This document shows positions 30,425 through 34,470 of a DNA stretch of 48,139 nt, in pieces. The DNA lies in assembly GCA_964016885.1 (NCBI GenBank), contig CAXHJY010001178.1:1-48139 (forward strand), given 5' to 3'. The DNA comes from Eledone cirrhosa. Its lineage: Eukaryota. Position numbers and translations under genes: made by a program. Below the pieces are notes generated by a model, which saw only the letters and a list, made by a program, of their open reading frames with translations, was not told the DNA's origin and did not search any database. Within the stretch, counting starts at the first letter, position 1, and each line of letters opens with the position of its first letter.

Positions 30425-33400
30425 TTTTCTAAGATTTTATTTAAACCTTCTCGTAAAATGCCCCATTTGTTTTTCTAAAATAACAATCTCGTCTGTTTAA
30501 TTTTTGCCGAAAATTCTAGGGCTCCAGCCTCTCGGTCCATTCATTCATATATCCGTATCATTGCCCAGAATCCAATCTTTTGCTCCCTCTCAATGCTATT
30601 ATATAATTCTGACTGGTTGTTCTAAATAATCTTGTATTTTAAAATCCCATTATTCGCTTATTACTGTTATATGCTTGTCCAATTATGCCCAAAATTTGAA
30701 GATTTTATTTAAACCCTCTCGCTAACTACCCCATACCCCTCCCACCCGCCCCCCACTCTCCACCATTATTTGGACCAATCATAAGTCAGCGGCCTATGCT
30801 ATCACTTCTGGTTGCTTTTCGATATGATGGACGGACTAAGGAATTCTGGAGAGTCTGAAAAATTTGGACACTCGGTGACAATGCCAAAGATAAAGACAAA
30901 TTCACCTCATGTTGCCGGACGAAAAGGCAAGGACTCCCTCTCTTTGTTTCGGCCGCGGATGGCCAACATAACCCCAACCCCGCGCCCCACCATTCCCACC
31001 CACCAAACGTAATCCAAAACTTCAGAGTTGGTACCATGAATGTAGGCACCTTAAAAGGCTGCTCTAACGAGGTTGTAGAGATGCTTGAACATAAGGAGGT
31101 TGATGTTTGCTGTATCCAAGAGACCAGGTGGAAGGGTGGGTCTGCTAGATTCATTGTGGGGTAAAAAACGAAGCTATAAGCTTTTCTGGGTGGGAAATGA
31201 CAATGGGCTAGGTGGGGTAGTAATCATGTTAACAGAAAAATGGGTAGATAAGATAATAGACGTAAATAGAGTGAACGACAGAATAATTATAATAAGACTT
31301 GTCCTAACTAGAACTACTGTGACAGTAATATCTGCGTATGCACCCCAATCCGGACTGCCTGGCACTATAAAAGACAGATTCTATGAGACATTGATGCTCA
31401 CTACCTCCCAAATAACCGACAGTGACTACATAATTATTGCTGGCGACCTAAATGGTCACGGACAACATTGTGACGGCTATGATGGAATCCATGGAGGCTA
31501 TGGGTTTGGTACTAGAAATGAGGAAGGTTCCAGAATCCTGTAATTCTGTGACGCAAATAACCTAACTATCTGTAACACTAACTTCAAAAAACGAGACAAT
31601 CACTTGATCACCTATAGATCAGGGGAACAAGCCAGGTAGATTATATCCTTACCAGAAGACGTGACAGAGTGTCTTGTAAACACTAAATCCCTCCCCCATG
31701 AAGAATGCACCTCCCAACATAGACTGATAATTAGCGACCTCATAGTCAGGACGAGACGTACTCGACAGCAGAAGAGGACTATCCTCAGGAGAAAAATATG
31801 GAAGCTAAAGGACCCCACAGCCAGAAATAAATTTCAAAGCATATTACTTGATGCTTTCGACAGTAAGGAAGAACATTTAGAGTCGGACAATATAGAGGGA
31901 CAGTGGGAATTTCTGAAAGCAAACCTGCTGATGGCGACAGACGAAGTCTGTGGCTGGAGCAGGCCTGTAGGCAGGAGGAGAGTAACATGGTGGTGGAACA
32001 GTAAGGTGGAGGGGTCAATTAAGGCCAAAAAGCAGGCTTGGAAAGTATGGTGGGATGGGGGAAGTAGAGAAGACTATCAAGTGGCCAGGAGGGAAGCTAG
32101 GAGACAAGTGTACTTAGCAAGAAGGGAAGCTGAGGAAAGAAAGTTCAAGCATGTTCTACAACGCGAGGACCAAAAACGTGAGGTGTTCAGGATTGCTAGG
32201 CAATGCGTCAAGGAAAACCGTGATATTGTCGGGGAGAAGTGTGTACTTAACGATGATGGCATACTTGCCATCACCGACGCTGATGGCATACTTGCCATCA
32301 CCGACGCTGATAAGAAGGTAGCTTGGAAGTGTCACTATGAAAGGCTACTAAATGAGGAGAATAAATGGGAGAAAGACAGTCTCCCCCTTATCGACCCAAT
32401 AGAGGGACCAGCAGTGTTAGTCGAGGGGAGTATAATAAGTAAGGCAATCAAGGATATGAAGACGGGTAAGGCGGCTGGGCCTTCGGAAATAGTTGCTGAG
32501 ATGCTGAAGGCATCTGGCATGGTGGGACACACCATGGTCACCCGCATAGTTAACCAAGTCGTACAGAATGGGGTTGTTCCGAAGGACTGGCATAGCAGCA
32601 TCATCGTTAACTGTTATAAGGGCAAAGGAGATGCCCTAGATAGGAGTAACTATAGAGGCATTAAATTAATCGACCAGGTCATGAAGGTCACGGAAAAAGT
32701 AATAGCGCAACTAATCAGAGAGAGAATTGACCTAGATGAAATGCAGTTTGGGTTTGTGTCAGGCAAAAGTACCACAGACACTCTTTTCATTGTACGACAA
32801 CTACAGGAGAAGTACCTAGCTAAAGGTAAACCCCTCTACTTAGCTTTTGTCGACTTGGAGAAAGCCTTCGACAGAGTCCCCCGCTCCATTATCTGGTGGG
32901 CTCTTAGAAAACTAGGCGTTGACGAATGGCTTGTGAGAGCTATACAAGCCATGTATAAAGAAACAGTCAGCAAGGTTAAAATTAACAACGAATATAGTGA
33001 AGAGTTTAGCGTAAAAGTTGGCGTCCATCAGGGCTCTGTTCTCAGCCCCCTACTATTTATTATTGCCCTTCAGGCTATAACAGAGGAGTTCAAGACCGGC
33101 TGCCCATGGGAACTCCTATACGCAGACGACCTGACACTCATAGCGGAATCAATGGCCGAGCTAGAGAAGAAATTCCAAACATGGAAGCACGGCCTAGAAT
33201 CAAAAGGACTTAAAATTAACCTGGCTAAGACTAAAGTTCTAGTTTGTAGAAAAGAAAATAAGGCGGCGGTCCCTTCTGGGAAATGGTCGTGCTTGGTGTG
33301 TAGGAAAGGCGTTGGTAGAAACTCCATTTTATGTCCTAAATGCAAAGTATGGGTGCATATAAGATGTAGTGGGATCACAGGTAAGCTAACTAAGAACATA

Positions 33401-34470
33401 GATTTTACATGTGGCCGGTGCTCTGGTGCAATAAGTAGCAGCAAGTGCCCACAAAATACTAGCTCTTTCAATTGTGCAGAGGGTTCTATAGAAATAGTGG
33501 ACAGCTTCCGTTACCTGGGTGATAAAATCAGCAGTGGGGGAGGGTGCTCTGAAAGTACAGTAGCTAGAGTCAGAACTGGTTGGAAAAAGTTCAGAGAGCT
33601 TATACCACTATTAGCTGCTAAAGGGTTCTCCCTAAAAATGAAAGGCAGGTTGTACGATGCCTGCATACGAACAGCAATGTTGCATGGCAGTGAGACCTGG
33701 GCACTGTGTGCAGAGGATATACGCAGACTAGAGAGGAACGAAGCTTGCATGCTCCGCTGGATGTGTAACAGTAAAATACGTGAACGGCAAAGCATAAACG
33801 AACTAAGGAAAAAATTAGAAATACGAGGGATCAGATATTGTTTCCTCGAGAGAAGGCTACGTTGGTATGGACACGTGATGCGCATGAAAGTCGATAGCTG
33901 TATAACAAAGTGCAGGGCAATAAAGATAGACGGTAGCCACGGAATAGGCAGACCTAGAAAAACCTGGGACGAGCTGATAAACTCCGACCTCACACACTTA
34001 CACCTCTCCAAGACAATGTCACTGGACCGAGACATTTGGCGGTACTCAGTAACAGAGAAGACCCGCCTTACCTAAATACATAGTAAAACCTACTACAGCC
34101 AGTAGGCATCTCTAACAAAATACCCCCCCGTCCCACCACCACCACCCCATCCACACCACCCCATCCACACCACCCCGTTCTATGTAAAGTTATGTTGGTG
34201 CCACACCATCCAGGCCGAAACAAATGAGATCGTGTAGGTGTCACGACAAAAAAAAACAGTCCACGCTGTAATGTGGCCGTGTAGGCAACACGGTAAAAAC
34301 CTCCCAGACCCACACTGTAAATGTGGTTGGTGTTAGGAACGGCATCCAACTGTAGAAAACCTGCCAGACGGTCCTATGCGAGCAAGACAATCACTCTTGC
34401 CTCAAGTGGGACTACCCCCGTCCAAACCCATGCAAGCGTGGAACACGGACGTTAAACGTTGATGATGATG

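Follow-up and report, generated by a model that had tools for sequence, protein, structure and literature searches.

We found that two complementary blocks, one toward each end of a LINE family of Eledone cirrhosa (family A), have changed together, so that the RNA likely closes into a 3.2-kb loop. By analogy, the duplex is best read as a likely counterpart, in a non-LTR element, of the CYC cyclisation duplex of Ty1, and would act at reverse transcription. The window, that is the whole stretch of DNA analysed, is a 48-kb contig (48,139 nucleotides) from a 3.0-Gb genome rich in microsatellites and LINEs. Positions 30427-34472 form a LINE with endonuclease, reverse transcriptase and PHD-like domains, disrupted by stops and frameshifts. 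This copy is a dead chimera, in which 33 diagnostic sites of subfamily A1 are followed by 94 of subfamily A2b. Its parts, and the related copies in the window, are the following:

30427-30880, + strand: 5′ UTR of family A (A1 type); remnant of a tandem monomer of about 270 nt, 30427-30520 repeating the 30699-30734 region
30796-30858, + strand: upstream ORF of 20 codons, from AUG 30796 to UGA 30856; A1-specific; precedes the main AUG, in another frame
30824-30826, + strand: AUG 19 codons before AUG 30881, in frame in the window copy; frame differs in A0 and A2
30881-30883, + strand: start codon of the single ORF; conserved ATG, the ORF being intact (1060 aa) in copy L132
30939-30972, + strand: 5′ pairing block; coding, about codons 20-31 of the window copy's ORF
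30973-31020, + strand: hypervariable C-rich linker; window copy shifted in frame compared with the intact ones; stop at 31010
31021-31690, + strand: APE-type endonuclease region; window copy broken by a frameshift near 31163, a stop at 31541 and a frameshift near 31640
31610-31720 (approximate), + strand: switch point from A1 to A2b, placed by diagnostic sites; one switch
31640-34075, + strand: rest of the ORF, reverse transcriptase and PHD-like finger; 96% identity to the intact L132 protein
34189-34229, + strand: 3′ pairing block, within the 3′ UTR; judged by eye to be a diverged tandem unit (about 50 nt) of that UTR
34230-34472, + strand: downstream hairpin array of the 3′ UTR and (GAT)n tail; the array is common to family B at about 75% identity
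3744-5240, + strand: 5′-truncated family A copy, 3′ block at 4955-4995
19902-21695, − strand: 5′-truncated family A copy, 3′ block at 20160-20200
26034-29150, + strand: 5′-truncated copy of sister family B, 73% identity; family B has no 5′-3′ duplex

Family A presumably belongs to the RTE clade, an assignment that follows the label of the preliminary description; the homologues (36-54% identity) carry no clade names. The intact 1060-aa ORF of L132 matches Pfam PF03372, PF14529 and PF00078, that is an APE endonuclease followed by a reverse transcriptase, and the 3′ end of the element consists of short tandem repeats with a (GAT)n tail, as is characteristic of the clade. RTE-1, SR2 and SR3 (PMC1291365) and the octopus RTE-2_OV (PMC9115989) are outlined in the same terms, with a single ORF of about 1050-1100 aa, APE and RT domains and a microsatellite tail; RTE-2_OV is credited with a zinc finger as well (PMC9115989). 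An unusually short 3′ UTR is given as the usual trait of the clade (PMC1291365), whereas that of our element covers about 390 nt (34076-34460) and contains a hairpin array; the outlines of RTE-clade LINEs in these two sources mention no 5′-3′ pairing. An Rfam scan of positions 24000-35600 returned AT-repeat noise only, with no ribozyme or known family at either block.

The preliminary description had proposed that positions 30939-30972 pair with 34189-34229 as 4+12+6+10 bp, and both the coordinates and the blocks hold (32 bp; duplex energy of −47.7 kcal/mol in the window copy). Local alignment of the leader region (30522-31040) with the reverse complement of the 3′ UTR gave a score of 40, against a mean of 18.7 (sd 2.1, maximum 27) in 300 dinucleotide shuffles. 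The 3′ block is kept, as had also been reported, in both 5′-truncated family A copies listed above. Because the window copy is chimeric, its duplex joins an A1 5′ block to an A2 3′ block, and part of its unusual quality is due to chance. The outermost pair of the 4-bp block involves a near-private 5′ base with two exact genome matches, the second of which (L131) lacks the matching 3′ base.

Copies were chosen from the genome in five ways, none of them random. Degenerate exact patterns gave 17,279 genome matches for the 3′ block and 1,259 for the 5′ block; a pattern restricted to the second half of the A2-type 5′ block gave 1,701, so that the 5′-block pattern had missed variants of the first half. 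The samples comprised 39 copies similar to the window leader, 20 copies picked mostly by its 3′ end, 40 copies hand-picked among the first 100 listed 5′-block matches to cover four variants (block-picked, mostly A2), 40 copies of the older A0 family, and the first 20 second-half matches absent from the listed 5′-block matches (second-half-picked). An ORF tree rooted on family B has the form of a ladder (B, A0, L228, L233, A1, A2), with which a second tree agrees for A1 and A2; copies of the youngest A2 subfamilies are nearly identical. Duplex energies were compared in copies hand-picked for having both blocks (13 A0, 20 A1, 4 A2a, 8 A2b, 7 A2T and 5 A2C), from which L040, L043, L064 and L066 were excluded as false 3′-block matches. 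Family D (L172-L185) shares a short 3′-block motif, but is a non-autonomous composite without leader and was uninformative as a comparator. The impression that the A0 leader lacks half of the block came from L197, whose deletion of about 46 nt is absent from most A0 leaders, and was discarded. Among contigs of four sequencing runs, family A was present under two other organism codes, with no usable block variants.

The median duplex energies within groups were −18.1 (A0), −38.3 (A1), −42.9 (A2a), −32.6 (A2b), −37.8 (A2T) and −40.7 kcal/mol (A2C), and the A2c and A2d copies ranged from −28.6 to −39.5. Pair 4 is A-U in all 13 A0 copies, in L228 and in L233, and G-C in 19 of the 20 A1 and 23 of the 24 A2 copies; both of its sides changed on one short branch, the stem of A1 and A2, together with the 3′ change that created pair 8. 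Pair 11 is A-U in A0 (13/13), C·U in A1 (20/20) and C-G in A2 (24/24). The 7-nt bulge of the duplex lies at the same place in A0. The complementarity is present in every sampled subfamily of family A, with these two two-sided changes, but not in family B, which has no duplex; conserved and covarying complementary blocks, as in known cyclisation elements, are thus found within family A only, and with unrepaired breaks.

Between A1 and A2C, changes in the 3′ block affected a single one of the 31 paired sites but 6 of the 10 unpaired ones (p=3e-4). The paired sites also changed less than four-fold sites (27/106, p=0.005); they were weakly more conserved than the upstream UTR (10/61, p=0.09) and no more conserved than the downstream UTR (15/228, p=0.70). 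Adding A2d raised the paired-site changes to 2/31, the added one lying in the middle helix, which is predicted to be shifted in register in A2d after a 5′ break. In all four simulations, the 3′-side changes gave a stronger duplex than random changes did (p from <0.0002 to 0.004), while the 5′-side changes were no better than random for duplex strength (p 0.43-0.74). Folded alone, the 3′ block adopts a local structure that differs among subfamilies, so that local folding does not explain the pattern of constraint. A local hairpin had also been considered for the conservation of the 5′ block; it fitted the first variants but was rejected, as the G>A/T/C change at position 10 breaks this hairpin too.

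Deletions in genomic copies were then screened in 60 copies picked by the 5′ block. Eight gaps were flagged and six were true deletions; the gaps of L162 and L163 join a separate downstream copy and were not counted. In L240, 3,153 nt are missing: the deletion starts 7 nt past the 5′ block and stops 2 nt short of the 3′ block, and the two blocks remain, as does the tail. Searching with this junction gave a single further match, L247, which has the same left break; its right break is displaced upstream by 5 nt, to 7 nt ahead of the 3′ block, and its 5′ end and genomic site differ from those of L240. The two copies share the left break and may go back to a single event. Neither junction showed homology or splice signals. 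By a hand estimate that assumes uniform breakpoints, both ends would fall within 10 nt of the duplex base about 2e-5 times per deletion. In L164, the deletion begins exactly where the 5′ block ends. Once the loop had been cut and trimmed, the duplex would have kept the 5′ and 3′ pieces of the RNA together, and the reverse transcriptase would have jumped across; template jumping by non-LTR reverse transcriptases is documented, for R2, as summarised in PMC3414825 and PMC8857657. The R2 SIDEs are similar in that the 5′ and 3′ ends of a LINE are joined by an internal deletion, for which template jumping is one proposed origin; however, the authors of that work favour DNA recombination for their elements and invoke no duplex (PMC3414825), whereas the family A breakpoints lie at the predicted duplex base. 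The loop-out copies are indirect support for a duplex on RNA that gets reverse transcribed. A junction in sequencing run X4 (478>3660) may be a further loop-out or a misplacement between the complementary blocks.

As a separate observation, 12 of the 40 block-picked copies have their start 21-69 nt upstream of the block, against only one with a start at 70-190 nt, and about 3 of a further 20 copies start in the nearer zone. This clustering of 5′ ends is a lead only and is not counted as evidence; microhomology with (TA)n targets could explain it.

Several results count against a selected duplex. In the youngest subfamilies, pair 10 has been broken in three ways (A·C, U·C and C·C) without any repair, and A0 has a mismatch at pair 9. 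Native pairings are not stronger than pairings across subfamilies: the A1 5′ block with the A2C 3′ block is the strongest of all, and the A0 5′ block pairs better with the A1 3′ block than with its own. The A0 duplex (median −18.1, best −21.5) does not rise above the shuffle background (mean −25). In family B, no inverted match above shuffles was found in L071, L072 and L083, nor any duplex by windowed duplex energy in L072 and L083; since family B has young copies, the duplex is not required for a LINE of this kind. Minimum free energy folds of whole elements contained the duplex in two of five cases (L132 and L245); it was missing from those of the window copy, L041 and L214, where forcing it cost 7.1, 4.8 and 6.8 kcal/mol, folds of this length being unreliable either way.

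An intact single ORF of 1056-1100 aa runs from AUG 30881 through the 5′ block into the endonuclease in 11 young copies (8/40 block-picked and 3/20 second-half-picked; 0/39 A1 and 0/20 A0). The 5′ block is thus coding sequence, and of the earlier proposal that the 5′ leader pairs with the 3′ UTR, the pairing stands but the leader location does not. The most variable site of the block is the third position of an Arg codon. Among copies with the region, the column of AUG 30881 is ATG in 39/39 A1, 29/29 block-picked, 19/19 A0 and 16/17 second-half-picked copies, and this AUG is in frame with the endonuclease in 13/39, 23/29, 13/19 and 10/17 of them, respectively. In family B, too, an AUG lies in frame with the endonuclease motif, about 23 codons ahead of it. 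The AUG at 30796 with its 20 codons, the UGA at 30856 and the AUG ORF at 30824-31012 were all confirmed in the window copy. The UGA belongs to the 5′ UTR: it precedes the conserved AUG 30881 and is in a different frame. It is fixed as a stop in A1 (39 TGA and 1 TAA of 40), but the block-picked, mostly A2, copies have GAA or GAG in 27 of 28 cases and ATA in place of AUG 30796, again in 27 of 28. The statement that AUG 30796 and UGA 30856 share the endonuclease frame is true of 20 of the 40 A1 copies and not of the others (20/13/7 over the three frames), the frame varying in A1 through length changes of the hypervariable C-rich tract. Upstream AUGs occur in all leaders, in frames that are not conserved across subfamilies.

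Kilobase-range pairing with the 3′ UTR underlies readthrough in Tombusviridae and frameshifting in BYDV, and the preliminary description had suggested that the duplex may likewise promote recoding into the endonuclease frame, by readthrough of UGA 30856 or by −1 frameshifting. In A1, the fixation of the stop (39/40 TGA), the shifted frame that 19 of 39 copies share with the window copy, and an upstream frame that ends on an AUGA overlap at the endonuclease Met (14/40) are in keeping with this; the 19 copies were, however, chosen for their likeness to that copy. Outside A1, the idea meets the intact single ORFs and the in-frame AUG of most block-picked (23/29) and A0 (13/19) copies. Moreover, AUG 30796 and its UGA are absent from A2, which retains the duplex, the C-rich linker occurs in all three frames even within A1 (13/19/7), and young copies as well as family B have Ile in place of the endonuclease Met. 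Family A, unlike the viruses, has no conserved in-frame stop or frameshift site. The recoding idea is thus largely refuted, and the proposed readthrough is not used, with residual doubt for A1 only; we consider it very improbable. What stands of the long-range model is the 5′-3′ pairing itself, which is family-wide, shows two-sided changes relative to the basal subfamilies and is accompanied by loop-out copies.

A more serious contender is that the duplex forms as a by-product: an old inverted duplication would have been kept complementary, with no benefit needed, by template switching between the arms and by A-to-I editing at mismatched or edge adenosines, the edits then becoming fixed through reverse transcription. 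ADAR prefers A·C mismatches, and 5 of the 16 polarised changes in the blocks are A>G, several of which turn an A·C mismatch into G-C. Per adenosine this is an excess (5/20 in the blocks against 51/1087 elsewhere, p=0.002, in a comparator that includes constrained codon sites), so that upkeep by editing, with no adaptive value, is conceivable; the share of A>G among changes is, however, not significantly raised (5/16 against 51/318, p=0.16). Fold-back inverted duplications do occur in these elements, as in the 20-bp snap-back of L045, the 5′-side changes are random, and family B thrives without the duplex. On the other hand, editing cannot produce the 3′ substitutions that repair pairs 4 (T>C), 8 (T>G) and 11 (T>G), and paired 3′ sites change less than four-fold sites, so that we regard this explanation as rather unlikely. 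Somewhat more doubtful still is a selected duplex that acts on translation or RNA stability, by dampening or timing synthesis of the single-ORF protein or by protecting the RNA. The covariation and constraint apply to it equally, every ribosome would have to unwind the 5′ block some 60 nt beyond the main AUG, and all leaders have upstream AUGs; but the frames of these AUGs are not conserved between subfamilies, and the loop-out copies point indirectly to a duplex on RNA that is reverse transcribed. Our ranking puts a role in reverse transcription or integration first, then the by-product, then translation or stability, and recoding last.

The arrangement of the blocks recalls the 5′CS/3′CS cyclisation of flaviviruses, in which the 5′ partner lies in the early coding region and the 3′ partner in the 3′ UTR. 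Block placement is alike, and in both cases translation and template use would compete; unlike family A, flaviviruses replicate RNA to RNA by an RdRp and not by reverse transcription. In Ty1, the CYC5/CYC3 pairing is summarised as critical for reverse transcription (PMC3681743; PMC7969010). However, Ty1 is outlined as tRNA-primed, with a strand transfer that is needed and a Gag chaperone, whereas family A is a non-LTR, target-primed element with no LTR, primer-binding site or Gag. In HIV-1, as in family A, the 5′ and 3′ terminal regions of a reverse-transcribed RNA interact, but it is a retrovirus with different priming, and the circularisation is described as shown in vitro (PMC1976439). End-to-end pairing is thus known for LTR elements and RNA viruses. 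Among titles and the opening parts of abstracts, which covered few subscription papers, we found no description of 5′-3′ pairing in a LINE or other non-LTR element, a weak kind of absence.

We consider it likely that the duplex forms in vivo, and somewhat more likely than not that selection keeps it; its action at reverse transcription or integration is our tentative inference from the compared sequences. The 5′ block probably arose as an inverted copy of a repeat unit of the 3′ UTR before A0 and A1 split, since the 3′ block appears by eye to be a diverged tandem unit of about 50 nt. With the 5′ block at about 58-91 nt into the ORF, elongating ribosomes would melt the duplex, which would re-form on RNA leaving translation. 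The closed form would then keep the 5′ portion of the RNA or the completed cDNA beside the 3′ end where target-primed reverse transcription starts, and would favour the element's own long RNA and the completion of the 5′ junction, much as CYC5/CYC3 pairing serves reverse transcription in Ty1. A LINE lineage may thus have evolved its own genome-cyclisation signal, a possibility that we advance with reserve: a ribosome-melted duplex would switch the RNA from message to template and tether its 5′ end at the integration site, and the compensatory changes, the loop-out mini-elements and the clustered 5′ ends would be its genomic record.

Such a signal would bear on the switch of LINE RNA from translation to template and on the joining of the 5′ end when a new copy is made. 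Family A offers a testable system, with a target of 30 bp, natural compensatory variants, a duplex-free sister family as control and young intact copies. Furthermore, the loop-out copies suggest that genomic deletion junctions may be readable as footprints of RNA structure in retrotransposons.

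Among the 40 copies of family A, a single-ORF LINE, that had been picked by the 5′ block of the long-range pairing (L132–L171), 12 have their 5′ end 21–69 nt upstream of this block, a zone of 50 nt; only one of the 40 has its 5′ end in the 120 nt beyond. The 5′ block itself is damaged in a group of copies of subfamily A0, comprising L197, four near-identical leaders on contig C17 of the source genome and one on contig C289. Their leaders are 99–100% identical and have in common a deletion of ~46 nt, which removes half of the block; they likely represent a segmental duplication. 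Mini-elements were also observed (L240:345–650 and L247, on contigs C1 and C8 of the same genome), in which the entire inter-block loop is missing and both blocks and the tail are retained.

Subfamily chimeras of the A1/A2 and A1/A0 types are recurrent, and include the window copy (switch at about 31610–31720), L037 and L064. Because chimeras with apparently single switch points recur, template switching or gene conversion is suggested as their source.

Further features of these elements and of other LINEs are as follows.

6362–9499 (−), uninterrupted endonuclease and RT ORF (1045 aa) of a different LINE
9370–10575, open frame of 401 aa preceding the 1045-aa ORF
30427–30734, tandem-monomer 5′ UTR, unit of ~270 nt
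~33290–33420, PHD-like zinc finger after the RT, inside the 31640–34075 ORF
28900–29030 and 34230–34345, short-hairpin array from a ~50-nt tandem unit
L045, about 400–590 (minus strand), B-like 3′ UTR with a snap-back inverted repeat

The 1045-aa ORF shares about 30% identity with family A. Family D (L172–L185), whose members are ~98% identical, is a non-autonomous composite: an unrelated AT-rich head and a microsatellite are combined with the 3′ UTR and the final ~260 codons of a related LINE. The zinc finger of family A is also present in many unnamed homologues, and several copies carry at least two 5′ UTR monomers. The inverted repeat of L045 is perfect over 20 bp, with a loop of 6 nt. The hairpin array is conserved and common to family A and its sister family B, and is a candidate RT recognition signal.
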